Source of the DNA: an uncultured bacterium
Lineage (GTDB): Bacteria > Verrucomicrobiota > Kiritimatiellia > RFP12 > UBA3636
Length of the DNA: 48,576 nucleotides
Assembly (NCBI GenBank): GCA_902761575.1
Contig: CACWKU010000008.1
Coordinates: 1 to 48,576, forward strand
Direction of reading: 5' to 3'
Below the pieces are notes generated by a model. It saw nothing but the letters and a program-made list of their open reading frames with translations. It was not told the origin of the DNA and made no database searches. Positions 17,506 through 43,501 of this stretch are shown one piece after another. The number at the start of each line of letters is the position of its first letter. Positions within the stretch are counted from its first letter, which is position 1. The translations under genes and the position numbers were made by a program.

Positions 17506-17514
17506 CGGCGCCGG

Positions 17515-17523: not shown

Positions 17524-17569
17524 CGCCCGACCCCGCCCGCGCAAGCGGGTGGCGCGCGCGGGCGGCATC

Positions 17570-17578
17570 TGGTAGAAT
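17570..17578 (+). promoter_or_regulatory. extended -10 box TGGTAGAAT, 7 nt upstream of the cobB ATG at 17586
   Basis: TGGTAGAAT-GGGGCGC-ATG. It is divergent from the mirror-image box at 17515..17523. Confidence 0.45.
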
Positions 17579-17585
17579 GGGGCGC

Positions 17586-21150: not shown

Positions 21151-21211
21151 CCTTCTCCCCCATCCCCCCTCTTCCGTCCGAAACCTTTCCACCGCGCATT
21201 TCCCTGCGAGC

Positions 21212-22417
21212 ATGAAACGTCCCTTCCGCCACGCCTTCCTCCTTCTCGCCTTCGCGCCGCTCCTCGCGGCGCGGGCGGAGGAGCCCGTCGCGGATGTCAC
21301 GGCGTCGAACGCCTGCGACCGGCTCTGCCTCGACCTTCTCGCGGACGCGGCCGCCGCGCGCCGGAACGTCGTGTTCTCGCCGTTCAGCCTGTCCGGCGCG
21401 CTCGGCATGGTCGCGCTCGGGGCGAGGGGAGAGACGCTCGCGCAGATCGACCGCATCGCCGGGACGGGCCTCGACCCGGACGCGCTCGCGGAGCGGGAGG
21501 CCGGCGTGCGGGACGCGATCCTCGAGGCCGCCCGCGCGGACGGCGTCGAACTGCAGCTCGCCGATTCCCTCTGGAAGCAAAAGGGCGACGCCCCGCTGCC
21601 GGGCTTCGAGCAGGCGCTCCGCCGCGGATTCGGCGCCGAGGTCCTGGACTTCGGGCCCTTCCCGGCGTCCGACGTGAATCGCTGGGTCTCGAAGAAGACG
21701 AAGGGGCTCCTGCCGTCCGTGTTCGACGACCTCCCGGCCGGCACGCGCCTGGCGCTCGTGGACGCCGTCTACTTCAAGGCGCGCTGGGCCGTGCCGTTCG
21801 AGCGCAAGCGGACGTCCGACCGGACGTTCTATCCGGAGGGCGGTGCGCCGAAGACCGTTCCGTTCATGAACCTGCTCGCCTGGTTCGCCTACGATTCCTC
21901 GGACCGCTGGGAGTCGCTGGAAATCCCCTACCGGGGGGAGCGGTTCCGGATGCAGATCGTCCTGCCGCGTCCGGGCGTGACCGTCGCCAACCTCGTGGAT
22001 GACTGGATTTCCGGCGCCGACGCTCCGCCCGCCGCAGGCGCGCCCGACGGGAACGGGACGCGCCGCTGGACCGCCTATCTCGAACTTTCCCTCCCGAAGT
22101 TTTCGTTCGGCTCCGCGCCGGACGTCGCCGGCGCGCTGCACCGGCTCGGCGCGGCCGATGCGTTCGACCCGGCCCGGGCCGACTTGTCCGGGATGTTCCC
22201 GCCGTCGGGCGAGCCCCTCTTCCTGATGCGGTTCACGCACTGCGCCGTCGTCGATGTGGACGAGCGCGGCACCACCGCCGCGGCCGCGACCGGCATGTCG
22301 TTCGGCTGCAGCGTGCCGGCGCCTCCGGAGTTCCTGATCGTCGACCGTCCCTTCGTCTTCTTCATCCGCGAACCCGGCGGACGCATCCTCTTCGCCGGCG
22401 CGGTCTTCGAACCCTGA
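21212..22417 (+). CDS. serpin (inhibitory-type hinge), secreted
   Basis: ORF 20807..22417 was trimmed to MKRPFRHAFLLLAFAPLLAARA. Serpin motifs are FSPFSLSGALGM and NAVYFKARW-type VDAVYFKARW. The hinge is DERGTTAAAATGM and the end is DRPFVFFIRE. Confidence 0.9.
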   Translation: MKRPFRHAFLLLAFAPLLAARAEEPVADVTASNACDRLCLDLLADAAAARRNVVFSPFSLSGALGMVALGARGETLAQIDRIAGTGLDPDALAEREAGVRDAILEAARADGVELQLADSLWKQKGDAPLPGFEQALRRGFGAEVLDFGPFPASDVNRWVSKKTKGLLPSVFDDLPAGTRLALVDAVYFKARWAVPFERKRTSDRTFYPEGGAPKTVPFMNLLAWFAYDSSDRWESLEIPYRGERFRMQIVLPRPGVTVANLVDDWISGADAPPAAGAPDGNGTRRWTAYLELSLPKFSFGSAPDVAGALHRLGAADAFDPARADLSGMFPPSGEPLFLMRFTHCAVVDVDERGTTAAAATGMSFGCSVPAPPEFLIVDRPFVFFIREPGGRILFAGAVFEP

Positions 22418-22431: not shown

Positions 22432-24345
22432 ATGAAACCCTTCCTCCATTCGCCGCGTAGCGGCGCCCATCATTCGGCGCGAAGCGCCGCCCTCCATTCG
22501 GCGGCAACGCCGCCCTTCATTCGCGCCATAGGCGCGTCCTTCATTCGCGCCATAGGCGCGCCCTTCATTCGCGGCGTAGCCGCGCCCTTCATTCGCCGCG
22601 TAGCGGCGCTCTTCATTCTCTGCGCGGCCGCGCCCCGCGCGGCCGCGCAGTGCGCCGCGCAGGGCGTCACGCTCAAGCCCGGCTGGAACGCCGTCTACGT
22701 CGAGGTCTCGCCCGAGGCGGACGCCACCGCGGTCTTCGGGCCGTGGCCGGTCGACTCGGTCGGCGTCTACGACCCGGCCTCGTTCCTCGCCACGCGCCAG
22801 TTCTCGGCGGACGGCGGGTCGGACGGCCTCGTCTCGTCGCCCATCTTCATGTGGAACCGCGAGTACCCCGAGGCGACGTCCGTCACGCGCGTCCCCGCGG
22901 GCGTGGTCTGCCTCTGCTTCAACACGAACCTCGCGAGCGGGGCGGAGGGGACGTTCTCGACGAACCTCGTCGGCGTCCCCGCCGCGCCGCGCACGACGTG
23001 GCACCGCAGCGAGGGCGGCGAGGTGCTCAACTACTTCGGCTTCTCGGTGCGCCCCGGCGCGGCGGTCGCGCCCGGCGCCTACCTCGCCGGCTTCGGCGAC
23101 CTGGCGGGCGGCTCGCTGCTGCGCATCGGCGGCAAGCGGCGCGAGGACCCGCCCTCGCGCCTGCCGGTCTACTCGAACGACACGGTCTCGGACGGCGAGG
23201 TGCTGCTCGTCGGCGCGACGGCGCCCTCGGACTGGTCCGGCGCGCTGTACGTCTCGCCGATGGACGGCCTCGACTTCGGCACCAACGCGACGCTCCGCAC
23301 GCTCTCGGTCCGCAACGACGGCGGCGCGCCGCGCACGGTCTCGCTGAAGCTGGACCGCGCCGTCGCGGAGCTCGACGCCCGCCTGCCCTTCGGCCCGGCG
23401 CTGCTCGTCTGGCGCGACGCGGACGTCGCCCGCACGAACGCCGCGTGGAACGCGCTCGAGGGCTTCGGCGCGTTCGCCTCGAAGCGCCTCGCCGCCGGCG
23501 AGACGTGGCGCCTGCAGTTCGGCCTCGACCGCGCGAGCGTCCCCGCCGGGCTCGTGCAGGGCATTCCCTTCGGCGCGCTCCTCACGGCGCTCGACGACGA
23601 CGGCGGCTCGCAGATGAAGGCGACCGTCCCGCTGCGCGCGGAGACGAGCGGCGCGGACGCCGCGCGCACCGCCTGGCCCTCCGGGCTGTGGATCGCCGAC
23701 GTCGCGCTCGACACGGTGGACTTCGCCTCCGCCGAGAACCCCGCCCCCGCGGGCGGCGTCCTCAAGCTGCGCCTCCCGCTGCACGTCGACGCGGAGGGCA
23801 AGGTCCGGCTGCTGCAGCGCGTCGTCGCCGCGGGCGAGGCCGACGCCGCCGGCAACCTCGCCTACCGCCTCTACGCGGGCGAGGCCGAGCCGCCCGCCAC
23901 CGCGTCGCAGGCGCTGCGCATCTCCTCGGCCGTGCTGCCGACCGAGACGCCGGTCGTCGAGGCCTCGTTCGCCGACTTCTCGTCCGCGATCGGCATCGCG
24001 ACGTTCCAGTTCGAGGTGGCGGCGGACGGCGCCACGAGCCTCCTGCGCCACCCCTACCATCCGCAGCACGACGGCCTGCGCTGGGACTTCTCCACGCCGG
24101 CGCCATCCGGCGATTTCATCGACAACTACAAGGGCGAGGTAAAGCCCGAGACCTTCTCCGTGAAGAACACGCTCATGCTGTCGTTCGACTTCGGCGCGGG
24201 CGCCTCGCGCTGGGACCCGCAGGACGCCGTCTCCGGCTCCTGCTGGTGGAGATTCTCGGGCCTCCGCCGCGAAGGCGACCTCGTCGCCTCCGGCCCCCTC
24301 TCCCTGAAGCGCGTCTCCGCCCTCTCGGAAATCGTCCTCGAATAA
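22432..24345 (+). CDS. secreted hypothetical protein (637 aa) with hairpin-array leader
   Basis: It starts 14 nt after the serpin stop. The N-terminus is the translated repeat array and ends in RRVAALFILCAAAPRAAAQ. The mature part is unassigned and contains HPYHPQHDGLRWDF. Confidence 0.6.
   Translation: MKPFLHSPRSGAHHSARSAALHSAATPPFIRAIGASFIRAIGAPFIRGVAAPFIRRVAALFILCAAAPRAAAQCAAQGVTLKPGWNAVYVEVSPEADATAVFGPWPVDSVGVYDPASFLATRQFSADGGSDGLVSSPIFMWNREYPEATSVTRVPAGVVCLCFNTNLASGAEGTFSTNLVGVPAAPRTTWHRSEGGEVLNYFGFSVRPGAAVAPGAYLAGFGDLAGGSLLRIGGKRREDPPSRLPVYSNDTVSDGEVLLVGATAPSDWSGALYVSPMDGLDFGTNATLRTLSVRNDGGAPRTVSLKLDRAVAELDARLPFGPALLVWRDADVARTNAAWNALEGFGAFASKRLAAGETWRLQFGLDRASVPAGLVQGIPFGALLTALDDDGGSQMKATVPLRAETSGADAARTAWPSGLWIADVALDTVDFASAENPAPAGGVLKLRLPLHVDAEGKVRLLQRVVAAGEADAAGNLAYRLYAGEAEPPATASQALRISSAVLPTETPVVEASFADFSSAIGIATFQFEVAADGATSLLRHPYHPQHDGLRWDFSTPAPSGDFIDNYKGEVKPETFSVKNTLMLSFDFGAGASRWDPQDAVSGSCWWRFSGLRREGDLVASGPLSLKRVSALSEIVLE
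22441..22650 (+). repeat. mini-hairpin tandem array A1 (7-8 units of ~24 nt) plus 13-bp terminal hairpin
   Basis: Units are of the type CCTTCATTCGCGCCATAGGCGCG and CCTTCATTCGCCGCGTAGCGGCG. The terminal hairpin is CTGCGCGGCCGCG ccccg CGCGGCCGCGCAG at 22620-22650. Confidence 0.9.
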
Positions 24346-24389
24346 CCTCATTCAACCAACCAAACACCGAACCACCCAAACACCGAACC

Positions 24390-25475
24390 ATGAAAACCAC
24401 CATTCCTCATTGCCGCGAAGCGGACCGTCATTCGGCGGCGACACCGCCGCCCTTCATTTGCGGGGACGCCGCACCCTTCGTTCGCCGCGCAGCGGCGTTC
24501 GTCATTGCCGCGCTTGCGGCCTCGGCCGCAAGCGCGGCCGGCTTCCGCGCGGCGCCCGTCGCCGAATTCAAGGAAGGTGCCCTCTCCTTCGGACTCTCCG
24601 CCGGAACGACGTTCGTCGGCGGCGAGGCCCGCGAGCACGTCTTCCATCCGAAGGGGTATTTGTCCGACTATCTGGAGGAAATCCCCGGCGCGCCCGCGGA
24701 AGACCGCCGCCACCAGCTCTCCCGTCTCGACTGGGACATGGCCTCCGTCCTCGTGGGCGTCTCCGGATCCCTCCGCTACGACCGCCTCTCGCTCAACCTC
24801 GGCATCTGGTACGGCGGCAGCGGCTCCGACGACTACGACATGAAGGACTACGACTGGATGGCGGGCGACCACGTCCCCCATACCGAGTACTCCCGCTCCG
24901 ACACGGAGCTCACCGACGCCTGGCTGTTCGACGCCAACGTCTCCTTCGACTTCTGGCGCTCCGAGGGCTTCACGGGCTACGTCTTCGCCGGCGCGCGCGA
25001 GCAGCGCTGGAAGTGGACCTGCGACGGCCGCACCGACTACTGGTACACCGAGAACGGCCACGTCTGGGAGCACGAGGACGGCCACATCTGCGACTACCGC
25101 CAGGTCCTCTTCTTCGGCTACGTCGGCCTCGGCGGAAGCTGGAGGCTGACCGATTCGCTCGGCCTCTCCGCCTACGTCTCCTGGGGCCCAGGCTGGAAGG
25201 GACGCGACCGCGACAACCACATCGGCGCCGAAAAGGACACGCACGACTCGTTCGACTACGATTCCAACGTCTACGCCGCCGGCGTCTCGCTCGACTGGCA
25301 CGTCGCCGAGCGCGCGACCGTCTCCTTCGGCGTCGACTGGCAGAAGGCCACGCTCAACCAGGGGCTCCTCTCCCAATGGGAGTACGGCTCCGACGAGACC
25401 GAGGAGATGCCCGACTCCGCCGGCATGGAGAACGAGTACCTCTCCTTCACCGTCGGCCTCGACTACGCCTTCTAG
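24390..25475 (+). CDS. omptin-family outer-membrane protease (peptidase A26)
   Basis: It aligns by eye along its whole length to OmpT/Pla: SRLDWDM, KDYDWMAGD (the Asp-x-Asp catalytic pair), ICDYRQVLFFGYVGLGGSWR, RDRDNH (the Asp-x-His pair) and the C-terminal ENEYLSFTVGLDYAF. Confidence 0.85.
   Translation: MKTTIPHCREADRHSAATPPPFICGDAAPFVRRAAAFVIAALAASAASAAGFRAAPVAEFKEGALSFGLSAGTTFVGGEAREHVFHPKGYLSDYLEEIPGAPAEDRRHQLSRLDWDMASVLVGVSGSLRYDRLSLNLGIWYGGSGSDDYDMKDYDWMAGDHVPHTEYSRSDTELTDAWLFDANVSFDFWRSEGFTGYVFAGAREQRWKWTCDGRTDYWYTENGHVWEHEDGHICDYRQVLFFGYVGLGGSWRLTDSLGLSAYVSWGPGWKGRDRDNHIGAEKDTHDSFDYDSNVYAAGVSLDWHVAERATVSFGVDWQKATLNQGLLSQWEYGSDETEEMPDSAGMENEYLSFTVGLDYAF
24403..24538 (+). repeat. mini-hairpin tandem array A2 (~5 units) plus 15-bp terminal hairpin
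   Basis: Unit examples are TTCCTCATTGCCGCGAAGCGG and CCTTCGTTCGCCGCGCAGCGGCG. The terminal hairpin is GCCGCGCTTGCGGCC tc GGCCGCAAGCGCGGC at 24507-24538. Confidence 0.9.
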
Positions 25476-25483
25476 CACGCAAG

Positions 25484-25528
25484 TCCGGCGTGGCGCGGCG
25501 GGCGGCTCCGCCGCCGCCGCCCACGCCG
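25484..25528 (+). terminator. long imperfect GC hairpin after the omptin gene
   Basis: CCGGCGTGG...CCACGCCGG closes a ~45-nt stem-loop starting 9 nt after the stop. No U-tract. Confidence 0.35.
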
Positions 25529-25584
25529 GGCGTTGAACGGCCGCGCTCCGCGCGGCGCACCGCAGCCCCGGCAAACCGAACATC

Positions 25585-26397: not shown

Positions 26398-28578
26398 TTG
26401 AACACGTCCGTCCTCCGTCATTGCCGCGAAGCGGCCCCGTCATTCGCGCCGCGCAGCGTCGCGATGTCATTGCGCCGCGCAGCGGCGCTCGTCATTGCCG
26501 CGCTTGCGGCCTCGGCCGCAAGCGCGGCCGCGCCGGTCACCCTCGCGCCGATGTTCCGCGACCACGCCGTTTTGCAACGGGACGTCCCCGTCCCGATCTG
26601 GGGAACGGCGGAGCCGGGGGCAAAGGTCGCGGTCCGACTCGTCCGTGCGGACGAGTCGGACGCGGAACCATGCGAAATGACGGCGACGGTCGGCGAGGAT
26701 GGACGCTGGCGCGTCGAGCTTCCGCCGCATCCCGCTGGCGGTCCTTACGAGCTCGGCGCAGCCGAGCTCCCCCATGCCCTCGGCGCCGCGTCCGCGCCGG
26801 ACGGCGCGGGCGCGCGCGCCGAGGACATCCTCATTGGCGATGTCTGGCTCTGCTCCGGCCAGTCGAACATGGACATGAACTACGGCTGGGGGCTCACGCG
26901 CGGGAAGGAGGACATCGAGACGAACGTGCACGCGAGGATCCGCCTCTTCGACGACCGCAACCGCACCGCGCTCTCGCCGCAGCGCGACCTGCCGGACGAC
27001 TACGGCTGGACGACCTGCGACCCCGCGCACGCAAAGTCCTTCTCCGCCGTCGGCTACTTCTTCGGGCAGGCGCTGCAGGAGGCGATGCCCGACGTCCCGA
27101 TCGGCCTCGTCGAGGCGTCCTGGTCCGGCTCGCCCATCAAGACCTGGATTCCCTACGAGGCCGCCGAGGCCCTCGGCGGCGATTTCGGCAAGCAGGCCGG
27201 CGAGCGCCGCGCCATCGCGGAGGCGTGGGAGAACGGCGGCGCCGAGCAGTTCAAGGTCGACCTCGCCGCGTGGATGGAAAAGCTGCCCGCAATCGACCCC
27301 GGCGACGCCCCCGCCGCGCCGGACTTCGACGATTCGGACTGGCAGACCGCCAACCTTCCCGAAATCACCGAGAAGCACACCAAGCCCGACTTCGACGGTT
27401 GGGTATGGTATCGCAGGACGTTCGTGATCGACGAAGAGGAGCATCCGGTCGTCGACACGGCCTCGCTTTCGCTCGGCCCCATCGACGACCAGGATTGGAC
27501 CTATGTCAATGGCGTTCTCGTCGGCACGACCAATGTGTGGGACGCACCTCGCGACTACAAGATTCCGGAAGGCGTCCTGCATTCCGGAACCAACACAATC
27601 GCGGTCAAGGTCCTCGACTGGGGCGGACACTCCGGATTCTGGAAGAACGCCCCCGCCGGCATGTCCGTATCGGTTTCGTTGGCGCAAGACGAAATCGTCA
27701 CCGAAGAATGCATCGTCGAAAGCAGTAGCACACGCACCATCCCCCTCGCCGGCGAATGGAAGTTCAAGGCGTTCCCGGCGGAGCCGCGGCCGGTGGACCC
27801 GTCGTCGCCGTCGTCGTGGGACATCGCCGCGTGCCACAACGGCATGGTGGCGCCGCTCTTCGGGATGGCGGCGAAGGGGGCGATCTGGTACCAGGGCTGC
27901 TCGGACGTCGGGCACGCGGACCTCTACGCGAAGCAGTTCCCGGCGATGGTCGGCGCGTGGCGCGAGGGCTTCGTGCACGACGACGCGGGCTTCCCGGTCT
28001 ACCTCGTGCAGCTCGCGGCGTTCAAGGAGGCGCACACGGAGCCGCTGGACTCCGCGTGGGCGCGGATGCGCTGGACGCAGATGCGGCTCGGCGAAACCGT
28101 CCCGCACTGCGGCACCGCCGTCGCGATCGACGTCGGCGACCACCGCGACATCCACCCCAAGGACAAGAAGACCGTCGGCGAGCGCCTCGCCGCTCTCGCG
28201 CTTGCGCAGACCTATGGTCGGGAAGGCCGGTCATTGAGCCCCGTGCCGTCGCAGGCGAGCTACGATTGGGCGGCGGGACACGTCATGATCCAATTCGTCG
28301 ACCCCGTATCCCTCAAGCCGGCGAAACTGCGAGAGGATTTCGACCTTCGCGGCTTCCAGGTTTTCATCGATGGCGGCGACTGGAAATGGGCGGAGAAGTC
28401 GTTCGTCAACGAAAAGATGTTCCCCGACACCGTGTTCGTGGACTGTCCCGGCGGAGTCCACACAAATGTTTGTGTCCGCTACGCGTGGGACGACTACCCC
28501 GACTGCAACCTCGTTTCCGCCGACGGCCTTCCCGTCGGCCCGTTCGAGCTGAAGGCGAAAATCCTCGATCTCAAATAG
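26398..28578 (+). CDS. sialate O-acetylesterase-like carbohydrate esterase with inserted galactose-binding-like domain
   Basis: The motif GDVWLCSGQSNM is typical of the 9-O-acetylesterase family. The segment DDSDWQTANLPE...WVWYRRTF is typical of a sugar-binding jelly roll. The track start is TTG. An in-frame ATG at 26464 would give MSLRRAAALVIAALAASAASA. Confidence 0.8.
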   Translation: MNTSVLRHCREAAPSFAPRSVAMSLRRAAALVIAALAASAASAAAPVTLAPMFRDHAVLQRDVPVPIWGTAEPGAKVAVRLVRADESDAEPCEMTATVGEDGRWRVELPPHPAGGPYELGAAELPHALGAASAPDGAGARAEDILIGDVWLCSGQSNMDMNYGWGLTRGKEDIETNVHARIRLFDDRNRTALSPQRDLPDDYGWTTCDPAHAKSFSAVGYFFGQALQEAMPDVPIGLVEASWSGSPIKTWIPYEAAEALGGDFGKQAGERRAIAEAWENGGAEQFKVDLAAWMEKLPAIDPGDAPAAPDFDDSDWQTANLPEITEKHTKPDFDGWVWYRRTFVIDEEEHPVVDTASLSLGPIDDQDWTYVNGVLVGTTNVWDAPRDYKIPEGVLHSGTNTIAVKVLDWGGHSGFWKNAPAGMSVSVSLAQDEIVTEECIVESSSTRTIPLAGEWKFKAFPAEPRPVDPSSPSSWDIAACHNGMVAPLFGMAAKGAIWYQGCSDVGHADLYAKQFPAMVGAWREGFVHDDAGFPVYLVQLAAFKEAHTEPLDSAWARMRWTQMRLGETVPHCGTAVAIDVGDHRDIHPKDKKTVGERLAALALAQTYGREGRSLSPVPSQASYDWAAGHVMIQFVDPVSLKPAKLREDFDLRGFQVFIDGGDWKWAEKSFVNEKMFPDTVFVDCPGGVHTNVCVRYAWDDYPDCNLVSADGLPVGPFELKAKILDLK
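26411..26528 (+). repeat. mini-hairpin tandem array A3 (~4 units) plus 15-bp terminal hairpin
   Basis: Its last 42 nt (26489-26530) are identical to 24499-24540, and it has the same terminal hairpin at 26497-26528. Confidence 0.9.
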
Positions 28579-28690: not shown

Positions 28691-28793
28691 GAAATCTCCC
28701 GTTTCTGCGGCCCGTTCGAACTGGAGATCACGCCCTGACCCCTTGCCCGCTCCCCGGAGCGCCCCCCATCAAAAACCAAAACACACAACGACC

Positions 28794-29888
28794 ATGAATA
28801 CTCCCGCCATCCGTCATTGCCGCGCAGCGGCCCCTTCATTCGCCGCGAAGCGGCGCCCTTCATTCGCCACGAAGTGGCGGTCGTCATTCGTCCTTGCGGC
28901 GGCGCTTTGCGCGCTGGCGCAAAGCGCCGCCGCCGCGGACGTCTCCTTCGCCTACCAGGGCGTGCTGCGCGCCGACGACGGCGGCGCGCTCCCCGAACGC
29001 AACCAGACGGTCGAGTTCCGCCTCTACGACAGCCCCGACGGCGAGACCGCGCTCTGGGGGCGCACGGTCGCGGTGCTGCTCGACGAAAACGGGCTCTTCA
29101 ACGCCGAGCTCTCCGACTCCGCCGGCTCGACGGCCCCGGGCGCCCCGGGCACCGGGCTCGCCGGCGTCTTCGCCGCGAACGCGGACAAGTCGCTCTTCGT
29201 CGGCCTCACGGTCGTCGGGACGAGCGGCGAGATCGCGCCGCGCCAGAAGATCCTCCCCGTGCCCTACGCGGTCTTCGCCTCCGACGTCGCGTCCGCGAGC
29301 GGCGACTTCGCCGCGGCCGGCGTCCTCACCGCGGCCTCCGCGACGTTCTCGGGCGGCGTCTCGGCCGCCTCGCTCGACGTCGCCGGCTCCGTCGCGGCCT
29401 CGTCGCTCTCCGTCACGGGCGACGCGACCGTCAACGGCGACCTGCAGGTCGGCGGCGCGGTCTCCGGCTTCGGCACGGTCCCGCTGGAGTGCATCATCCT
29501 GTGGAGCGGCTCCGCGGACGACATCCCGAACGGCTGGGCGCTCTGCAACGGCCAGACCGTCAACGGGCACACGACCCCCGACCTGCGCAACCGCTTCGTC
29601 GTCGGCGCCGGCACGGGCTCGCAGTACACGGTCGGCGAAACGGGCGGCGAGGAGAAGCACACGCTCTCGGAGAGCGAGATGCCGTCGCACTCGCACACCT
29701 ACGACTTCAAGGGCGCGGACTTCAAGGGCGCGTGGGACGACGACAACTACGTCTACGACGCATCCGGGCACTACAAGGACAGGTCCCAGAACGACAACCG
29801 GCGGACCACCAACTCGACCGGCGGCGGCGCCGCCCACGAGAACCGCCCGCCGTACTACGCGCTGTGCTACATCATGCGCGTCCGCTAG
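28794..29888 (+). CDS. secreted tail-fibre-like protein with C-terminal phage tail collar domain
   Basis: ORF 28743..29888 was trimmed to MNTPAIRHC. The N-module is FAYQGVLRADDG...VEFRLYDS...ALWGRT...PRQKILPVPYAVFA. The collar motifs are IPNGWALCNGQ, TPDLRNRFVVGAG, MPSHSHTY and HENRPPYYALCYIMR. Confidence 0.85.
   Translation: MNTPAIRHCRAAAPSFAAKRRPSFATKWRSSFVLAAALCALAQSAAAADVSFAYQGVLRADDGGALPERNQTVEFRLYDSPDGETALWGRTVAVLLDENGLFNAELSDSAGSTAPGAPGTGLAGVFAANADKSLFVGLTVVGTSGEIAPRQKILPVPYAVFASDVASASGDFAAAGVLTAASATFSGGVSAASLDVAGSVAASSLSVTGDATVNGDLQVGGAVSGFGTVPLECIILWSGSADDIPNGWALCNGQTVNGHTTPDLRNRFVVGAGTGSQYTVGETGGEEKHTLSESEMPSHSHTYDFKGADFKGAWDDDNYVYDASGHYKDRSQNDNRRTTNSTGGGAAHENRPPYYALCYIMRVR
28809..28933 (+). 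repeat. mini-hairpin tandem array A4 (~4 units) plus 17-bp terminal hairpin
   Basis: It includes the covarying unit CCTTCATTCGCCACGAAGTGGCG. The terminal hairpin is GCGGCGGCGCTTTGCGC gctg GCGCAAAGCGCCGCCGC at 28896-28933. Confidence 0.9.
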
Positions 29889-29899
29889 CGCGGCCGCTC

Positions 29900-30026
29900 A
29901 TGATGAATGAAGGGTTCCACTGCGCGGAAAATGAAGGGTGCTTCGCAAATGAAGGGTGCGCCTGCGGCGCAAATGAAGGGTCCCGCTTCGCGGGAAATGA
30001 AGGGTGCGGCTGAGCCGCAAATGATG
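29900..30026 (-). repeat. reverse-complement mini-hairpin array (5-6 units) downstream of tail-collar gene 1
   Basis: AATGAAGGG + TGCGCC tgc GGCGCA / TCCCGC ttc GCGGGA / TGCGGC tga GCCGCA. It starts 12 nt after the stop at 29888. Confidence 0.9.
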
Positions 30027-30077
30027 CAGTCAAACAATCCACGCTTTGCAACCATGACACGTTTCTTCGTTGCTTGT

Positions 30078-31487
30078 ATGCATCGCATCCGCTCCTATCA
30101 TTCGCGCGGAGCGCGCCACCCATTTGCCGCGCATCGGCACCCTTCATTCGCGCCAGCGGAGTGTCCTCCATTCACGACGAAGGCGTGCCCTTCATTCGCG
30201 CCAGCGGAGTGCCCTCCATTCACGCCGAAGGCGTGCCCTTCATTCGCGACGCGCAGCGGCGCGCCCTTCATTTGCGGCGGAGCCGCACCCGTCATTCGCG
30301 GCGCAGCCGCGCTCGTCATTGCCGCGGCCGCGACAGCGGCCGCGAGCCCGGCGCCCGCGCCGTGGAGGCAGGCCGACTTCGCGGCCGACCTCTATCGCAA
30401 GGCGGCGTCGGTGCAGCCGGCGGACGAAAACGTCGTGCTGTCGCCGTGGGGCGTGGCGAACCTCTTCGCGCTGCTGCAGACCGGCGCGCGGGGGGACACC
30501 GCTCGCGGCATGGCCTTCGCGCTGCAGCTCGGCGGCGTCGAGCCGCCCGAGCCCGACGCCGTCGCCGCGACGTTCCGCGAGTCGCGCACGAACCTCGAAC
30601 GCGCCGCGAACGACGACGTCGCGCTCGAGCTCTCCGATTCGCTCTGGATCAAGCCCGGATTCGCCCTGTCCGAGAGCTTCCGCTCCCTTGCCCGCGACTC
30701 CTTCGACGCCGACGTCCGCCTCACCTGGATGGGCGCCAAGGGTCGCAAGGAGATCAACGCCTTCGTCGCCGAGAAGACCCACGACCGCATCAAGGACCTG
30801 ATCCAGCCGCCCGTCCTCGACGATCCGCTGACGCGCCTCGTCGCCGTCGACACGGTCTACCTCAAGGCCAAGTGGGAGATCCCCTTCGAGAAGGACGCCA
30901 CGCGCGACCGGACCTTCCACGCGCCGGGCGGCGACGTCGAGGTCCCGTTCCTCCACGACACGCGCCACGCGGAGATCCTCGACGCGCCCGAGTGCGCCGC
31001 GCTGCGGCTCCCGTACCGCTTCGGCTCGGCGGAGATGCTCGTGATCCTGCCGTCGCCCTCCAACACGCTCGCGGAGGTCGAGGCGAAGCTCTCCGGCCCG
31101 TGGCTCGACCGGCTCGCCGCCAAACCGTGGCGGGGCGAGGCCGTCCTCGCGCTCCCGAAGTTCGACTTCGGCAGCGAGCACGACCTGTCGAAGACGCTCC
31201 CGTACATGGGCATGGGCGCCGCGTTCGACCCCGCCCGCGCCGACTTCTCCGGCATCGCGCCGCAGCTCTACATCGGCACCGCCATCCAGAAGGCCAACGT
31301 CACGGTCGACGAAGCCGGCACCGAGGCCGCCGCCGCGACTTTCGCGGTCATGCTGGAAGGGTGCATCGGTCCGATGGAGAACGTTCCGCCCCCGCGCCCG
31401 TTCGTCGCCGACAGGCCGTTCCTCTTCATCATCCGCGAAACCCGCACCGGCCTGATCCTCTTCCTCGGCCGCGTCTGCAAGCCCTAG
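30078..31487 (+). CDS. serpin (inhibitory-type hinge), secreted, with long hairpin-array leader
   Basis: The start was chosen as MHRIRSYHS by analogy with neighbouring leaders; alternatives are 30054 and 29907. Motifs are LSPWGVANLFALL and VDTVYLKAKW. The hinge is DEAGTEAAAATFAV and the end is DRPFLFIIRE. Confidence 0.85.
   Translation: MHRIRSYHSRGARHPFAAHRHPSFAPAECPPFTTKACPSFAPAECPPFTPKACPSFATRSGAPFICGGAAPVIRGAAALVIAAAATAAASPAPAPWRQADFAADLYRKAASVQPADENVVLSPWGVANLFALLQTGARGDTARGMAFALQLGGVEPPEPDAVAATFRESRTNLERAANDDVALELSDSLWIKPGFALSESFRSLARDSFDADVRLTWMGAKGRKEINAFVAEKTHDRIKDLIQPPVLDDPLTRLVAVDTVYLKAKWEIPFEKDATRDRTFHAPGGDVEVPFLHDTRHAEILDAPECAALRLPYRFGSAEMLVILPSPSNTLAEVEAKLSGPWLDRLAAKPWRGEAVLALPKFDFGSEHDLSKTLPYMGMGAAFDPARADFSGIAPQLYIGTAIQKANVTVDEAGTEAAAATFAVMLEGCIGPMENVPPPRPFVADRPFLFIIRETRTGLILFLGRVCKP
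30093..30344 (+). repeat. mini-hairpin tandem array A5 (~10 units, includes a 48-nt higher-order repeat) plus 9-bp terminal hairpin
   Basis: CCTTCATTCGCGCCAGCGGAGTG(T)CCTCCATTCACG(A/C)CGAAGGCGTGC occurs twice. The terminal hairpin is CGCGGCCGC gaca GCGGCCGCG at 30323-30344. Confidence 0.9.
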
Positions 31488-31500: not shown

Positions 31501-34254
31501 ATGAGAACACAAGCAAGAACAACACGTCCCTGCCGCGCAGCGGCCGGCCATTCGGCGGCAATGCCGCCGCCCTTCATTCGCCGCGCAGCGGCGCCCTTCA
31601 TTTGCGGCGGAGCCGCACCCTTCATTCGCCGCGCAGCGGCGCTCGTCATTCTCGCGACGCTGACCGTTTCGGCCCACGCCGAAACGGTCAGCATCGCGAG
31701 CGCCGCCGACTGGGCGGCGTTCGCGGAGCGCGTGAACGCGGGCGAAACGGACCTCTGCGCGGAGATGACCGCCGACGTGACGCTCGGGAACGACGCGCCG
31801 CGCGTCGGAAGTTCGAACTACTTCGGGGGAACCTTCGACGGTCAGGGGCACGCGCTCACGGTCGCGTTCGAGGAGACGGGCGGCTCGGGTTCCGATCGCG
31901 ACCCTCCCTGCGCCCCCTTCGCCTACGTGTGCGGGGCGAGCATCCGGAACCTGCACGTCACCGGAACCATCGCCTCCAACGGCCGTTACGCGGCCGGTTT
32001 CTGCGGTTTCGTGGCCGCCCTGAACGGGACGACCTCGCTTTCGAACTGCCGCTCGTCCGTCTGCGTCGAATGCCGTGTCGACGGCGACGCCACGTCCGCC
32101 GGATTCGTCGGCGCCGTCAAGACGCCCGGCACGCTCCAGATGTCCGACTGCGTCTTCGACGGTTCGATTTGTTCCGGGAGGGGCGTCACGGCCCATTCCT
32201 GCGGCGGGTTCGTCGGCTGGCGCGACGCTTCCGCCTCGGTCTATCTGGGGAGATGCCTGTTCGCTCCGGCGAAGACCAGGGTGGGGACCGACGGAAACGC
32301 CTCGACCTTCGTGCGCGACAACGGCGCCGACGGCCGGAACATCGACGCCTGCCACTATCTCCAGACGCTCGGCGCGGCGCAGGGCGCGAACGCCTCCGCG
32401 ACGTCCGCGGAGGACCTCGCCGCCGCGCTGGGAAGCGACTGGACCGTCGCGGACGGCAAGGTCGTTCTCGCGTCCTTCCCCGGTTCGGTCGAGGTCTACG
32501 ATCCCGATTGGGTCGAGATCTCCTCCGCCGCCGACTGGACCGAGTTCGCCGAATTGGTGAACGCGGGCGAAACGTACCTCTGCGCGAAGATGACCGCCGA
32601 CGTGGCGCTCGGGAACGACGCGCCGCGCGTCGGCACGACGGAGGCCACCGCCTGGACGGGCGAGTTCGACGGCGGCGGACACACGCTCACGGTGGACTGG
32701 ACGTTCACGAAGACGGAATTCGCCGCCCCGTTCGCGATCGTCTCCGGATGCTTCGTCCACGACCTGCACGTCGCCGGATCGATCTCCTCCGACACCAACT
32801 ACGTCGCCGGGTTCGCCGGCTGGGCGAAGCCCGGGGCCCGGTATCCCACGTTCGAACGCTGCCGGTCCTCCGTTGCCCTCACGTGCACGAAGTCCGGCGA
32901 GGTGTGCTGCGGCGGCTTCGTGGGCTACACGTTCTGGGCGGTCTACAACGTCTGCTTCCGGGACTGCCTGTTCGACGGCTCCCTTCTCGGACCGAACGCC
33001 GAACGGTGCGGCGGGTTCGCCGCAAGCCCCTTCGTCGACGCCAACATCGATCTGCACAACTGCCTCTTCGACCCCGCTCAGGTCACGGTTTCGAGCTCAA
33101 TGTCGGGGACCCTCGTGGGCACCCCCTACTCCAGCCACACCTGGGTCGACACGTGCTACTACACCCGGGTCCTCGGCGCGAAGCAGGGCACGGACGCCTC
33201 CGCGATGTCCGAGGAGGACCTCGCCGCCGCGCTCGGCGAGAACTGGATCGTCGCGAGCGGAAAGGTCCTCCCGAAGACGTTCGTCGAGGTCGGCCATCCC
33301 GAGAATGCCGTGGCGGGGTTCGTCTACCAGGGCGCGCTGCGCGACGCGCAGGGGTTCGCGCTCGCGGAGAAGCGCCGGACGGTCGAGATCCGCCTCTACG
33401 CGCAGGCCGCGGGCGGCACCTCGCTCTGGGGCCGGAAGCACGACGTGCTGCTCGACGACGCCGGGCTCTTCCTCGTCCAGCTCTCGGACGACGCCGGCAC
33501 GCCGGTCGACGGCGACCCGGGGACGCCGCTCGCGGACGTCCTCGCGCGGAACGCCGGCGTCCCGCTCTTCGCCGGAGTGACGGTGGCGGGGGCCGGCGCG
33601 GAGATCTCGCCGCGCCAGAAGCTCCTCCCCGCGCCGTTCGCGCTCCTCGCGTCGGATGCCTCCGCCGCGCGCGGCGACTTCGCCGTCGCGGGCGCCCTCT
33701 CCGCGGAGGGGCTGGTCGTCTCGGACGAGCTCGCCGCCCCGTCCGCGCAGATCTCCGGCGCGGCCACCGCCGGGACGCTCGGAACCGCCGGCGGCGTGCG
33801 CGCGGACGGCAACCTGTCGGTCGCGGGCGAGCTCGCGGGCTACGGCACGATCCCCGTCGGCGGCATCGTCGCGTGGAACGGCGCGGAGTCCGCCATCCCG
33901 AACGGCTGGGCGCTCTGCAACGGCCAGACCGCCAACGGGCGCAAGACCCCCGACCTGCGCAACCGCTTCGTCGTCGCCGCGGGCGGGCAGTACAAGGCCG
34001 GCGACACGGGCGGCGAGGACAAGCACAAGCTGACGGTCTCCGAGCTGCCGCCGCACTCGCACACCTACGACTTCAAGGGCGCGGACTTCGACCTCGCGTG
34101 GGACGACGACAACTACATCTACGACGCCTCCGAGCACTACAAGGACAGGCCCCAGAACGCCAACCAGAGGTCCACCAACGCGGCCGGCGGCGACCAGCCG
34201 CACGAGAACCGCCCGCCGTACTACGCGCTTTGCTACATCATGCGCGTCCGCTAG
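31501..34254 (+). CDS. secreted protein: two Cys-rich GLUG-like modules + tail-fibre-like module + phage tail collar domain
   Basis: It starts 13 nt after the serpin stop. Two ~270-aa repeats begin SAADWAAFAERVNAGETDLCAEMTADVTLGNDAPRVG and SAADWTEFAELVNAGETYLCAKMTADVALGNDAPRVG. The C-terminal ~320 aa is paralogous to 28794..29888 and ends identically in HENRPPYYALCYIMRVR. Confidence 0.8.
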   Translation: MRTQARTTRPCRAAAGHSAAMPPPFIRRAAAPFICGGAAPFIRRAAALVILATLTVSAHAETVSIASAADWAAFAERVNAGETDLCAEMTADVTLGNDAPRVGSSNYFGGTFDGQGHALTVAFEETGGSGSDRDPPCAPFAYVCGASIRNLHVTGTIASNGRYAAGFCGFVAALNGTTSLSNCRSSVCVECRVDGDATSAGFVGAVKTPGTLQMSDCVFDGSICSGRGVTAHSCGGFVGWRDASASVYLGRCLFAPAKTRVGTDGNASTFVRDNGADGRNIDACHYLQTLGAAQGANASATSAEDLAAALGSDWTVADGKVVLASFPGSVEVYDPDWVEISSAADWTEFAELVNAGETYLCAKMTADVALGNDAPRVGTTEATAWTGEFDGGGHTLTVDWTFTKTEFAAPFAIVSGCFVHDLHVAGSISSDTNYVAGFAGWAKPGARYPTFERCRSSVALTCTKSGEVCCGGFVGYTFWAVYNVCFRDCLFDGSLLGPNAERCGGFAASPFVDANIDLHNCLFDPAQVTVSSSMSGTLVGTPYSSHTWVDTCYYTRVLGAKQGTDASAMSEEDLAAALGENWIVASGKVLPKTFVEVGHPENAVAGFVYQGALRDAQGFALAEKRRTVEIRLYAQAAGGTSLWGRKHDVLLDDAGLFLVQLSDDAGTPVDGDPGTPLADVLARNAGVPLFAGVTVAGAGAEISPRQKLLPAPFALLASDASAARGDFAVAGALSAEGLVVSDELAAPSAQISGAATAGTLGTAGGVRADGNLSVAGELAGYGTIPVGGIVAWNGAESAIPNGWALCNGQTANGRKTPDLRNRFVVAAGGQYKAGDTGGEDKHKLTVSELPPHSHTYDFKGADFDLAWDDDNYIYDASEHYKDRPQNANQRSTNAAGGDQPHENRPPYYALCYIMRVR
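31526..31700 (+). repeat. mini-hairpin tandem array A6 (~5 units) plus 22-bp terminal hairpin
   Basis: The terminal structure is CTCGCGA c GCTGACCGTTTCGGC ccac GCCGAAACGGTCAGC a TCGCGAG at 31651-31700. That is 15 perfect bp plus 7 more after one mismatch. Confidence 0.9.
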
Positions 34255-34265
34255 CGCGGCCGCGC

Positions 34266-34396
34266 ATGATGAACGAAGGGTGCTTCGCAAATGAAGGGTG
34301 CTTCGCAAATGGAGGGTGCCGCTCCGCGGCAAATGAAGAGTGCGCCTGCGACGCAAATGAAGAGGACTTCGCGAATGAAGGGCGCGTTTCGCGCGA
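34266..34396 (-). repeat. reverse-complement mini-hairpin array (~6 units) downstream of tail-collar gene 2
   Basis: AATGAAGGG/AATGGAGGG/AATGAAGAG spacers alternate with TGCCGC tcc GCGGCA and similar stems. It starts 12 nt after the stop at 34254, in the same junction sequence as at 29888. Confidence 0.9.
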
Positions 34397-34415
34397 ACGG
34401 AAAGAATCGACCGAC

Positions 34416-34781
34416 ATGAAACCGGAAGACGATCCACTGAAAGAGAAGAGCATGGCGTTCGCCGTGTGCGCGGTGAAGCTCGCGAGGTGGCTGCGCGAGG
34501 AGAAAAAGGAGTTCTCCCTCGCCGACCAGATTCTGCGGAGCGGAACCAGCATCGGCGCGAATCTGGCGGAAGCCCGCCACGCCGCGTCGCGCAAGGACTT
34601 TCTCGCGAAGTGCAAGATCTCGCTCAAAGAGTGTTCCGAAACCCTCTTCTGGATCGAACTGCTCGAACGCTCGGACCTTCTTTCCCGCGACCAGGCGAAG
34701 CCCCTTGCTTCCGATTGCAACGACATCCGCCGCCTTCTCGCGGCTTCTTGTAAAACTCTCGAACGGAATCTCCAGCCATGA
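34416..34781 (+). CDS. four-helix-bundle protein (23S rRNA intervening-sequence protein / Avd-like family)
   Basis: 121 aa, MKPEDDPLKEKSMAFAVCAVKLARWL...ADQILRSGTSIGANLAEARHAASRKDFLAKCKISLKECSETLFWIELL. This is the characteristic GANIAEG/SxxDF/ExxYWL pattern. GC is visibly lower than in the neighbours. Its stop overlaps the next ATG (ATGA). Confidence 0.85.
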   Translation: MKPEDDPLKEKSMAFAVCAVKLARWLREEKKEFSLADQILRSGTSIGANLAEARHAASRKDFLAKCKISLKECSETLFWIELLERSDLLSRDQAKPLASDCNDIRRLLAASCKTLERNLQP

Positions 34782-37700
34782 AACTGTCCGACCTGTTCCA
34801 TTCGCCGCGCAGCGGCGCCCTTCATTCGGCGCGGAGCGCCGCCCTTCATTCGGCGGCAACGCCGCCGCCCTTCATTCGCCGCGCAGCGGCGCTCTTCATC
34901 GCGTTGACGGCCGCGACGGCGAGCGAAGCCGCGGATGCCGGATTTACGCTCGGCGTGCCTTCGGCTCCGACCTTGCGGCTGAGCTCCGACGCGGCCGCCA
35001 ACGCCTGGCTTTCGTCCAACGCGCTCTATCCCGCGATGGCGGTCGTGGCGCCGGGCTGGGACGTCGCGACCAACGCCGCGTCGTCCCTGCAGTCCGTCGC
35101 GGGCGAGGAGACCGTGAAGCTCGCCGCCGCCGAGGCCGGCTTCGCGATCGAGCGCACCAAGCCCGAGTACTACCTCGGCGACCTGGTCTCCCCGCCGCCG
35201 CGCGTCGACTGGACCGCCACCTACGAGCGCTTCGTCCGGGACGGCACGGTGGGCTTCCTCTTCGACGCCGCCGGCCAGCGCGTCTACGCCACGCTCGGCG
35301 GAACGGTCCGGTTCACGTGGGTCCTCGAGAACGGCAGCGCGGTCGACATGACCTACGTCGTCTCGTCCTGCTGCTCCGGCCGCCCGCGCCGCATCTACTG
35401 GACGGACCACCCCTACAACGGCCCGCCGATCGACCTGAGCGGCAAGTTCGTGAAGTTCTACGGCCCCGACGAGCTCGTGAAGCCGGCCTACGGCGTCTAC
35501 ACGAACGAGACCGCCGGCATGACCCAGGTCCTCACGAACCGCGTCGTCTCCGGCCTCTACAACGACCCGTCGACCAAGATGCTCTACGCCTACGGCGAGC
35601 TGCAGGGGCAGGTCGTGATGGCCTACTACGACACAGGCACCTTCGAGCGCCTCCTGCACGTGCAGACGGTCGAGATCTGCCGCCCCGTCGTGAACGCGAT
35701 GACGGGCGAGATCGGCCGCCAGCTCAAGCCCGACGGCCGCGGCTACCCGACCGCCGGCCTCCGCGCGCGCCCCACCGTCGTCCAGCCCACGGACGACCGC
35801 GGCGACTACCTCTACCAGCACAAAGGCAAGCATTCCTACAGCCCGAAGAACGGCGCCGTCTTCCCGCTGCGCCCCACCGTCGGCAGCCGCTGGAACGCGG
35901 AGGTGTACTGGATGGAGACCGACGAGATGCTCGTCCAGTGGCCGTTCGAGCTCGACCAGTACGAGTGCGACTGGCCGAAGGACGCCACCGTGTTCGTCCG
36001 CGGCGACCAGGGCGGCGACACGGGCCGCCCGATCTACGTCCCCGACTCCTTCACGCCGACGCTGATGGGCTACCAGGACCCCGAGGGCCACGCCCGCGCC
36101 GTGGAGTCCGACGGCACGTTCCGGACGACCGACGAGGGCTGGTCGCTCCTGAAGCTCGCGGTCGACGACGACGTCTGGTTCGTCCCGCTCCATTCGATCC
36201 TGCGCTCCAACCCCGAGTACTTCACGCTCGAGGAGCAGACGGTCGCCGTCGGCTCCGAGCTGCGCCTCCGCGGCGGCTCGGTCGCCGGCACGGCGGGGAC
36301 GTTCTCGCCCTCCTGCGACCCCGACAGCCCCGGCTACGTCTATCCGCCCGTCTCGGGCGACCACTTCAACCACCGCCTCTACCGCGAGCCGCAGTCGTCC
36401 GCATCCGCGCAGACGAACCAGACCTCGTCCGCCTCCTCCGAGGGCTCCGACACCAACACGTACGCCTCGGTGGTCTACGCGGTCAACGTCGCGGAGAAGC
36501 CGATCGAGGTCTGGTGGAACACGACGATCAAGGAGGAGGGGATGCCCGCCGCGGTCGAGATTCCGACGCTCCCGCAGGTCTACCGCGCGCGCTGGCCGGA
36601 GCTCTGGGAGACGCCTCAGATCGTCATCGCCTCGCAGCAGGGCAGCGCCGCCGAGTCGGTCTATTCGCAGAACCGCGGCCTCTACCTCGACGCGACGAAC
36701 TCCACGGCCATGCTCGCCTCCCGCGCCTATTTCTCCGCCGAAAGCGGGATGGTGCAGCTCTGGATCCGGCCCGACGGCCTCGCGACGGACGACGCCGGCC
36801 GCGCCGTCCTCTCGCTCCACGGCCAGGGCGGGACGAATCTCGTCCTCGACCTGCGCCCGGACCCCGCCGCGGGCGCGACGAACCTCGTCCTTTCGCTGGA
36901 CGGCTCCGGCTCGGTCTCCGTTCCCTTCGAATACCTCCCCGACTTCGGCCTCTGGGTCCCCGTCCAGATCGAGATCGCGCCGGGCGCCGTCGCGCTCCGC
37001 GCCGGCTTCCTCGAGGAGGCCTCCCTCGACGGCGACGCCACGCCGCTGCTCGGCGACGTGGTCGGCGCCGCGCTCGGCGCCTCCGCCGGCGTCGGGGCGC
37101 GCGCCGGCGCCACGGTCGCCGAGATCCTCTTCCGCGCGAAGGCGATCGACGCCGCCGACGCCTTCACCGATGCGTTCGCCGTCCACGAGGGGCGCGAGGT
37201 CGGCCTCACGGGCTGCTACTCGTTCCGCGACACGGACCTGCAGATCGTCCCGGGCTCCGCCGTCCGCGTCTTCACCGACAAGGCGCTCGGCTCGCGCCAC
37301 CGCGCCCTCCGCTGCCTCTCCGAGTCCGACGGTCCGCCGCTCTTCGGCGCGGGCGTGGTCGTCTCCGACGCCGGCACGACGCCGGTCGTCTACGCGCAGA
37401 ACGACCCGGAAGAGCCCGGCTACAACCCGAACGAGGAGCACGGCATCGTGACCGCCGGCTCCGGCGGGCACGTCGCGTGGGCGCTGCGCTCCGACCTCAA
37501 CTCGGACACGTCCTCCGCGCCCGGCGTCCTCGTCGAATACGTCTCGGACGGCCGCAAGGCGATGCGCTGGTTCTCCGTCGCCGTCACCAACTCCCTCTGG
37601 CCCGAACTCGCCGCGCCCTGCACCGCCGGCCTCGCGCTCCCGGGCCCGCACCCGCTCGACACGTTCGACAACCCGTGGAAGAAGGAGACCTACTGGGACG

Positions 37701-43501: not shown

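Follow-up and report, generated by a model that had tools for sequence, protein, structure and literature searches.

Toxin complex (Tc) toxins are recognized by a fixed set of Pfam domains. Their classical components, which lack leader sequences, are put together in the cytoplasm and set free when the cell lyses (PMC10847048), and their A subunits (TcA) use variable receptor-binding domains for target recognition (PMC7861375). The largest census of TcC placed 96.4% in Proteobacteria and 3.2% in Firmicutes, and in classical systems some tcC genes are unlinked, or "orphan" (PMC7861908); the N-terminal/shell signatures are present even in one fungal TcA (PMC13236867). Here we analyze a 48,576-nucleotide stretch of an uncultured bacterium of the Kiritimatiellae (GenBank assembly GCA_902761575.1, contig CACWKU010000008.1; the whole stretch is referred to as the window), in which one gene on the plus strand (34778 to 43501) encodes a 2,907-residue protein, here called the giant, that a first-pass annotation made from the letters alone had described as an orphan TcA-like protein. 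The literature that we searched holds no description of Tc-like loci in bacteria of the Planctomycetota-Verrucomicrobiota-Chlamydiota (PVC) group, nor of either of the two clades described below, and the work on bacterial teneurins and on fungal Tc/mycoserpins, considered as a link to this family, proved to be unrelated.

Results

A TcA-like channel and docking module at the C terminus

The last ∼830 residues of the giant are, with high confidence, a remote homolog of the TcA channel and TcB-binding module. A Foldseek search of the PDB with an AlphaFold2 monomer model of residues 1708 to 2907 (51 homologs; mean predicted local distance difference test score, or pLDDT, of 72.6) recovered 14 matches at E ≤ 1e-3, the best in the database and every one of them a TcA subunit (TcdA1 in several states, XptA2, YenA2, and TcaA-TcaB; E of 1.2e-7 to 4e-4, probability 0.99 to 1.00, ∼650 aligned columns). 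The monomer model contains both the pore-domain hairpin and the TcB-binding-domain fold of TcA. Profile-profile comparison supports the homology at modest significance: in hhalign the family alignment matched 25 TcA C termini at P = 1.5e-4, a cropped version aligned collinearly (P = 1.1e-4), beginning with the first channel helix and reaching the last strand, and a profile of 34 members from several phyla reached P = 1.8e-5 (probability 78%, 635 collinear columns). A diverse family profile also found the tip region of SepA by hmmsearch (E = 0.0017, three sequences). The hairpin tip of the family, P-x-I/V-x-G-A-G, is aligned onto the TcA tip LPNIYGLAVGG, and further aligned pairs (family/TcA) are AAQAYDYET/AQQAWQWD, GGLADILARMDQNWL/LLAGETLMLNLAQMEQAWL, and VRDILLGLR/LSDIILHIR. 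The motif pairs that the first-pass annotation had listed for this module are the most conserved positions of the family and return as the same correspondences in the profile alignments.

Tested against the Pfam TcA_TcB_BD, VRP1, and neuraminidase-like families, the same proposal came out formally negative. TcA_TcB_BD (PF18276) gave no match at E ≤ 10 in ten family C termini, TcB-TcC-linked ones included; the positive control, SepA of Serratia entomophila pADAP, was recognized by TcA_TcB_BD (3.6e-51), the neuraminidase-like family (1.6e-24), ABC_toxin_N (7.6e-21), and VRP1 (4.8e-13). Because these Pfam signatures are negative, the window protein is no member of TcA as annotated. Its BLASTP comparison with SepA was not significant, with one high-scoring segment pair already collinear. 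By hhalign, the helical domain at residues 1380 to 1707 had no match to TcA, and against two full-length TcA sequences the C terminus alone aligned. Since these tests link only the C terminus to TcA, a TcA-like shell is unsupported, and the likeness proposed by the first-pass annotation stands for the last ∼830 residues and not for the remainder. Only the channel and docking module are common to the giant and classical TcA, and any "shell" is built differently.

Relatives of the giant precede TcB-TcC genes

Scanning one genome per species with the last 1,200 residues of the giant as the query recovered at least 514 loci, of which we analyzed the best 80. These come from Kiritimatiellae, Lentisphaerae/Victivallales, several Verrucomicrobiota orders, Acidobacteriota, Hydrogenedentes, Nitrospirae, Desulfuromonadaceae, and the isolate Pontiellaceae B1224. 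Searched exhaustively by phmmer, the last 807 residues matched 1,174 representative clusters (50% identity) at E ≤ 1e-3, 651 of them at E ≤ 1e-30, whose members are giant proteins carrying the module at the C terminus. Giants of the family span ∼2,200 to more than 5,000 amino acids. The family is defined by a C-terminal G(L/F)(K/R)TYSxSGN motif, a (Y/F)PQGHGDA motif in the helical domain, and an operon with three partner families (U600, FIB, and D295, described below), all of which are found in the window.

Five of the 80 loci have as the next gene one that matches both SepB and SepC (E down to 1e-38), and because of its SpvB, FG-GAP, TcdB_toxin_midN, RHS-repeat, and RHS-core content we identify it as a TcB-TcC fusion (TcBC). 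Two genome scans queried with the TcB regions of such fusions yielded ∼100 loci in Verrucomicrobiota, Planctomycetota, Hydrogenedentes, Desulfobulbaceae, Nitrospirae, Sumerlaeota, Omnitrophota, and others. The C terminus of a giant ends just upstream of the fusion in 19 of the 23 loci of the first set, and the second set (79 loci) shows the same arrangement, with U600 and FIB further upstream; these TcBC-linked relatives are 34 to 37% identical to the window protein over the last 807 residues. For bona fide B-C cocoons, one branch of the family supplies the A partner, and because its members directly precede TcB-TcC genes, the likeness of the family to TcA is no coiled-coil artifact. The TcA-like C-terminal module claimed at first pass is therefore borne out independently by the fold matches, by the collinear profile alignments, and by the position of its relatives.

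A midpoint-rooted neighbor-joining tree of 126 distinct giants, built from the C-terminal ∼800 residues, places all 46 that have an adjacent fusion gene in one clade of 51 (clade I), the remaining five having the fusion gene slightly further off or lying at a contig edge. The other 75 giants, among them the window protein and every member from Kiritimatiellae and Lentisphaerae, make up clade II, a clade or a grade given the midpoint root. No cocoon gene lies within 10 kb in any of the 75 clade II loci. The 48.6-kb window has no SpvB/RHS gene either, as the first-pass annotation had stated, and the giant is thus not encoded there with TcB or TcC; the label of orphan is accurate in this respect, but the protein is not singular, since it belongs to a TcBC-less clade with conserved partners. 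Some genomes hold both clades (L053 and L093 in Zod_Metabat.779, L063 and L075 in Hydrogenedentes bin-1056, and L069 and L159), and the two are therefore paralogous rather than orthologs of which one has lost a neighbor. Nearly all C-terminal motifs are common to both clades: GLNPLGL, THFEQI, RYxDMxFRxxRN, AAxAYDYET, NNPQ, FSLRxELFRI, VIPFxT, YLVPVGxDxMR, GRSVWNTRWLLIIP, and TYSxSGN. Kiritimatiellae are absent from both TcB scans and from a set of 82 TcB homologs, an absence that is unproven given the narrow patterns and word filters of these searches.

The clades also differ in what is inserted into the giants, those of clade I (e.g., L078:1955-12535) bearing FG-GAP beta-propeller, Big_9, and cadherin-like inserts instead of LamG. 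In some Acidobacteriota, Desulfuromonadaceae, and Victivallales loci, the giant is followed by another large secreted gene (L059:12629-16678, L062:12635-16702, L068:12453-17750, and L072:13971-19466), whose product combines Calx-beta with a lactonase-type propeller, or glucodextranase-B repeats with a beta-helix; these proteins may be alternative partners.

Coding reality and domain anatomy of the giant

The G+C content of the window is ∼70%, which produces long open frames in all six reading frames. The frame of the giant gene (2,907 codons plus stop) has G+C contents of 0.66, 0.49, and 0.97 at the first, second, and third codon positions (GC1, GC2, and GC3), even along its whole length. Two longer overlapping open reading frames (ORFs), at 34705 to 44016 (plus strand) and 34238 to 45625 (minus strand), have the shifted pattern of noncoding out-of-frame or antisense artifacts and were rejected. 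In a collection of 5.8 billion proteins we found 228 homologs of the giant at E ≤ 1e-3, nearly all of them full-length (2,800 to 2,900 amino acids) and the nearest 93% identical; they are annotated as "hypothetical" or "LamG domain-containing," and those with a named host are from Kiritimatiellae. With this GC3 and these homologs, the ORF is a genuine gene, conserved and belonging to a PVC bacterium of the Kiritimatiellae, and the first-pass call of the gene is confirmed. The subunit mass of its product is ∼320 kDa.

Behind the leader (residues 1 to 51), the giant divides into eight segments, all coordinates being on the plus strand. A conserved N-terminal region (residues 52 to 626; 34931 to 36655) has many near-invariant columns and no Pfam or PDB match, and the N-terminal ∼600 residues are only partly conserved in distant members (23 to 35% identity by BLASTP). 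It is followed by a lineage-variable LamG/ConA-like insert (residues ∼627 to 860; 36656 to 37357), a beta-sandwich with a pLDDT of ∼90 in a second AlphaFold2 monomer model (residues 508 to 1707, pLDDT 77), which Foldseek matched to LamG and a PDB profile search to 4qvs (E = 0.0014), and which is missing from distant members. A beta-rich core (residues ∼861 to 1413; 37358 to 39016; pLDDT 85 to 95) is present family-wide, with 31 to 38% identity in distant members, and Foldseek gave it no fold other than LamG matches. The helical domain that follows (residues ∼1414 to 1754; 39017 to 40039) contains invariant columns and the motifs LGDEAYTDALNPT and YPQGHGDAYGHY; it is the most conserved stretch by sequence and is kept family-wide, and its helices are of low confidence in the monomer model.

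A second LamG-like insert (residues ∼1755 to 2075; 40040 to 41002) is again a modeled beta-sandwich (1755 to 2067), in which the motif FAGEIAELRLW aligns to 4dqa; the type motif is (F/I)xGxIDE(V/L)R(I/V)W. It is limited to Kiritimatiellae and Lentisphaerae, and distant members run from ∼1747 straight into ∼2080. The models and Foldseek give both inserts the LamG/ConA fold, and PF13385 is precomputed on most homologs, whereas in the window protein itself it falls below Pfam reporting. Next come a pre-channel segment (residues ∼2076 to 2296; 41003 to 41665), modeled as a 59-residue helix (2139 to 2197) with a small beta element and carrying GLNPLGL, PFD, and THFEQI motifs in both clades, and the TcA-like channel hairpin (residues 2297 to 2563; 41666 to 42466), which is supported by the model, the Foldseek matches, hhalign, and the hmmsearch hit to the tip. 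The hairpin consists of a 92-residue helix (2297 to 2388), a low-confidence tip loop (2389 to 2402; LPTISGAGMTVNID), and a 161-residue helix (2403 to 2563). The C-terminal alpha/beta domain (residues 2564 to 2907; 42467 to 43498) matches TcA by Foldseek, aligns collinearly to the end of SepA in hhalign, carries the clade I motifs, terminates in the family signature TYSxSGN, and is equivalent to the TcB-binding domain of TcA.

By BLASTP to distant members, the family core comprises residues ∼860 to 1750 and ∼2080 to 2907, and the alignments show both LamG modules as lineage-specific insertions. The two LamG segments and the long helices that the first-pass annotation had placed at about 36700 to 37200, 40040 to 40830, and 41150 to 42450 agree with the modeled sandwiches and with the three helices of the pre-channel segment and hairpin. 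The top Foldseek match of residues 508 to 1707, the neck of the grappling hook GhpA, was discarded as repeat-domain noise (probability 0.30, root mean square deviation of 102 Å).

Operon partners and neighboring genes

ORF calling and all-against-all BLASTP on the best 80 loci revealed a same-strand operon in the order U600 (44 loci), one to three FIB genes (44), the giant, D295 (50), and sometimes a protein of ∼166 amino acids (13), all of whose products begin with leader-like sequences. The corresponding set in the window lies on one strand between 18.4 and 43.5 kb (D295, U600, FIB1, FIB2, and the giant), interleaved with two serpins, an esterase, and unassigned ORFs. U600 (22432 to 24345, plus strand) is a secreted protein of 637 amino acids with GWNAVYL and NPFxHxYHPDHDN motifs, assigned by BLASTP to the members in L003 and L004. 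Its family (∼600 amino acids) also lies upstream of the giant in TcBC-linked loci and, by Pfam and PDB searches with profiles included, has no match and no detectable relative with a known function. The two fiber-like paralogs, both identified by Pfam from their phage Collar/Gp10_C ends, are FIB1 (28743 to 29888, plus strand; 381 amino acids), which is 58% identical to the C terminus of FIB2, and FIB2 (31501 to 34254, plus strand; 917 amino acids), which ends in Collar and Gp10_C domains and belongs to the upstream partner family; the FIB end matches the phage tail fiber structure 9nxk (E = 8e-7). The D295 member (18432 to 19367, plus strand; 311 amino acids, secreted) was found by tblastn (47 to 49% identity, E of 1e-63 to 1e-76). 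D295 proteins (∼295 amino acids) are usually encoded after the giant, the window copy lying upstream; TSP3_bac is present in 10 of 14 members, and Pfam and PDB profiles found Ca-binding TSP3 repeats and nothing else. PADLOC gave no defense-system match for the giant and the four partner proteins.

The serpins are encoded at 20807 to 22417 (serpin A, serpin domain in the last ∼367 residues, Pfam 4.7e-73) and 29907 to 31487 (serpin B, residues 155 to 526, Pfam 1.6e-86), both on the plus strand; they share 37% identity, and each has a non-serpin N-terminal extension of ∼150 to 180 residues. The true start of serpin A probably lies downstream of 21150, and an ORF at 19384 to 21150 (plus strand; 588 amino acids, signal peptide, no Pfam or PADLOC match) overlaps its nominal start. 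Loci with a serpin upstream of the giant number only six, each of Kiritimatiellae type (gut); the serpin is therefore a lineage-specific addition and not part of the core. Between U600 and FIB1 lies a gene for a secreted 726-residue SASA sialate-O-acetylesterase protein (26398 to 28578, plus strand; SASA 9e-15, with a weak GH2 sugar-binding domain), which is outside the conserved operon in other loci. The first-pass annotation was right about the serpins and fiber-like proteins upstream of the giant and about the convergent YbaK-type editing gene downstream, but the protease that it listed was not found, the esterase occupying that place. Beyond the YbaK-type gene lie an aminotransferase and TrkA/TrkH, and on the other side of the cluster, at 1025 to 11284 and 15251 to 17668 (minus strand), are purL, purB, a metallophosphoesterase, a VWA-domain protein, and a GH9 cellulase with CelD_N. 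The context is ordinary chromosomal DNA and not an obvious mobile island.

Leader, repeats, and a possibly inserted small gene

The leader of the giant (residues 1 to 51; 34778 to 34930, plus strand) was delimited from its sequence, an alignment of homolog N termini, and a crude signal-peptide test. It consists of a long basic n-region made from CCCTTCATTCG repeats, a hydrophobic core (AAALFIALTAATA), and a probable cleavage site between SEA and ADAG, and homologs have ordinary leaders of 20 to 30 residues that end in AxA before ADAGYTLG, consistent with the cleavable-looking signal peptide noted at first pass. The test, a heuristic that requires a basic residue followed by an uncharged hydrophobic 12-mer, was positive for 49 of 58 giants of the family and 80 of 86 associated TcBC fusion proteins, and negative for SepA, SepB, and SepC; most of the failures are due to start calls that are over-extended in high-GC DNA.

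Allowing one mismatch, the 11-mer CCCTTCATTCG occurs at 27 sites between 22466 and 34878 of the window (0.74 expected), mostly in tandem with a spacing of 24 nucleotides. The sites are all at the 5' ends of cluster genes (U600, the esterase, FIB1, serpin B in both orientations, FIB2, and the giant), apart from a spot at 24450 within a stretch (24350 to 25540) that holds two copies and no confidently coding frame. Read in frame, the repeat encodes the PFIRR-type basic part of the leaders of cluster proteins, and its copies may represent a regulatory or leader element common to the cluster; for the genes that bear it at the 5' end, the true start codon is uncertain.

A 23S_rRNA_IVP-family gene (34416 to 34781, plus strand; 121 amino acids, four-helix bundle, Pfam 6.4e-25) sits between FIB2 and the giant, its stop codon overlapping the ATG of the giant (ATGA). 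The "hairpin leader" of the first-pass annotation corresponds to the inverted arrays GCAAATGAAGGG and CCCTTCATTCGC that flank this small gene (repeats at 34263 to 34385 and 34789 to 34899), the longest pair of arms being 52 nucleotides with 77% complementarity. A 19-nucleotide direct repeat spans the start codons of both the small gene and the giant. The gene and its repeats look like an inserted element, from which the giant ORF derives its first ∼35 codons.

Discussion

The account toward which we lean is that the giant probably serves as the A-type component, or channel, of a divergent Tc-like system exported through Sec. After export it would oligomerize, by analogy with characterized TcA as a pentamer, around a central alpha-helical channel; the LamG inserts, perhaps together with the fiber-like partners, would bind glycans on the target surface in the way of TcA receptor-binding domains, and the hairpin tip (LPTISGAG...) would enter the target membrane. 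The adjacent serpins may, in the gut lineage, shield the exposed complex from proteases. Because clade II has no nearby cocoon yet keeps the C-terminal motifs of clade I, its most likely role is to form pores independently of a cocoon or to act as a conduit for some other cargo or partner.

Several observations weigh against this account. The TM-scores of the Foldseek matches were low (0.13 to 0.16), a result of partial matching and of a different placement of the long helices in the monomer model. Searches of Pfam and NCBIfam with the window protein returned nothing at E ≤ 1, and sequence searches of the PDB, whether by the protein itself or by a family profile of 2,851 positions, returned weak LamG matches and no TcA. 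VRP1 (PF03538), ABC_toxin_N (PF20220), and the neuraminidase-like domain (PF18413) are missing from the window protein and its clade I and II relatives, and among the top 50 Foldseek matches of residues 508 to 1707, which are dominated by LamG, there is no TcA; since the N-terminal two thirds are without a TcA shell, a syringe-like prepore-to-pore mechanism is unsupported. The Sec leader is foreign to classical Tc toxins, and the absence of TcBC from clade II pertains to the window, the 10-kb flanks of its relatives, and scans limited by patterns and words.

A bolder version of the same account, which we regard as unlikely, would make clade II the core of a self-contained Sec-dependent machine, composed of an A-like oligomer, U600, the fiber-like proteins, and D295, that has dispensed with the Rhs cocoon. 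If this were true, the machine could be a pore-forming weapon of a new type, used by gut commensals and by environmental bacteria; or else, if it were assembled in the periplasm, it could be a channel into the producer's own outer membrane and thus a new export or surface apparatus. Either way, most natural "TcA" diversity would then lie outside the insect-pathogen paradigm, invisible to current annotation.

It is doubtful, though deserving of weight, that the giant is no toxin component at all but a structural machine of the cell envelope or surface, either a giant adhesin that binds glycans or a conduit across the envelope built with U600, FIB, and D295, in which the TcA-like bundle would serve as a stalk, an oligomerization core, or a channel in the outer membrane of the producer. 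The Sec leaders on all operon products, the LamG modules and phage-fiber-like partners, the housekeeping and glycan-degrading chromosomal neighbors, the two paralogs in some genomes, and the wide distribution of the family among free-living and commensal nonpathogens with strongly conserved length and sequence would all suit such a role. However, the C-terminal module has no characterized relatives other than toxin translocons, the genes of the sister clade have a physical link to those of polymorphic-toxin cocoons, and we saw no anchor (beta-barrel, lipobox, sortase, or PEP-CTERM-type) in the giant, whose C terminus ends in a soluble-looking TYSxSGN.

Less probable again is that the giant is the A subunit of a classical three-part Tc toxin whose TcB-TcC cocoon is encoded elsewhere and docks on the C-terminal domain. 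That domain retains essentially all clade I motifs, the unlinked tcC genes of classical systems offer a precedent (PMC7861908), and some genomes do hold clade I and clade II loci together, but TcBC is missing from the 10-kb flanks of all 75 clade II loci, the 82 TcB homologs include no Kiritimatiellae name, and none of the ∼100 TcB-scan loci is labeled Kiritimatiellae (within the narrow patterns and word filters used), though dozens of Kiritimatiellae species carry the giant. Finally, it is very improbable that the likeness to TcA is convergent, with long amphipathic helices attracting coiled-coil matches to a giant unrelated to Tc toxins: the negative sequence-family searches, the nonsignificant BLASTP comparison with SepA, and the low TM-scores would fit, but the 14 significant fold matches are without exception to TcA, collinearity of the profile alignment extends through the nonhelical end domain, and coiled-coil bias could not explain why family members lie directly upstream of TcB-TcC in ∼60 independent loci.

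The family has consequences beyond this locus, its members bearing Sec leaders and coming with three additional conserved proteins. More than 1,000 sequence clusters carry a TcA channel module yet escape every annotation model, in hosts that include Verrucomicrobiota, Kiritimatiellae, Lentisphaerae, Planctomycetota, Hydrogenedentes, Acidobacteriota, and others, and many SpvB/RHS "cocoon" genes of PVC type thereby gain a previously unseen A partner, while the sister clade that includes the window gene keeps the channel and docking domain with no cocoon gene nearby. This raises the questions of how a translocon of the megadalton class is exported, what the docking domain binds where there is no TcB, and what use the abundant Kiritimatiellae of the rumen and gut make of it. 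The family also offers new scaffolds for engineered protein delivery.

Among described systems, the TcA proteins of Photorhabdus, Xenorhabdus, and Serratia (TcdA1, XptA2, and SepA; 4O9Y, 6RW6, 6L7E, and 9MLI) are of the same size class (2,400 to 2,900 amino acids) and share with the window protein a long hairpin with a Gly-rich tip (LPTISGAG in the window, LPNIYGLAVGG in TcA) followed by an alpha/beta end domain, the motifs AQxAYxYE, GLxxxLxxMxxxWL, and a final xDIxLxxR, and inserted variable beta-sandwich modules that are likely receptor binders. The window protein differs in that its N-terminal two thirds consist mainly of beta-rich parts and include a conserved helical domain of a distinct kind, in having conserved U600, FIB, and D295 partners without counterparts in classical loci, and in belonging to a clade without a cocoon gene nearby. 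The hosts differ as well, the window family being found in PVC bacteria, Acidobacteriota, and similar groups, whereas 99.6% of catalogued TcC are from Proteobacteria and Firmicutes (PMC7861908). YenTc of Yersinia entomophaga (YenA1/YenA2 with chitinases; 6OGD and 9C4K) matches the giant in the fold of the channel and end domain and provides a precedent for a TcA shell unlike that of TcdA1, decorated by separately encoded accessory proteins, but unlike the window system it has two A chains and no signal peptides, always functions together with YenB/YenC, and exits by lysis that depends on a type 10 secretion system (PMC10847048).

The closest comparison is with clade I, as in Pedosphaera (L078) and Hydrogenedentes (L075), where the order is U600-FIB-giant-TcBC. 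These loci have the same core, upstream partners, and signal peptides as the window and, like classical Tc loci, a TcB-TcC gene directly after the giant. That gene, in contrast to the window, is a 2,200- to 2,400-amino-acid SpvB/FG-GAP/RHS fusion with a signal peptide of its own, while in clade II, including the window protein, the giants have LamG inserts and D295 usually comes next. The TcB-TcC fusions of PVC type (L056, L074, L075, L078, and L087 to L177) have signal-peptide-like starts, which classical cocoons lack.

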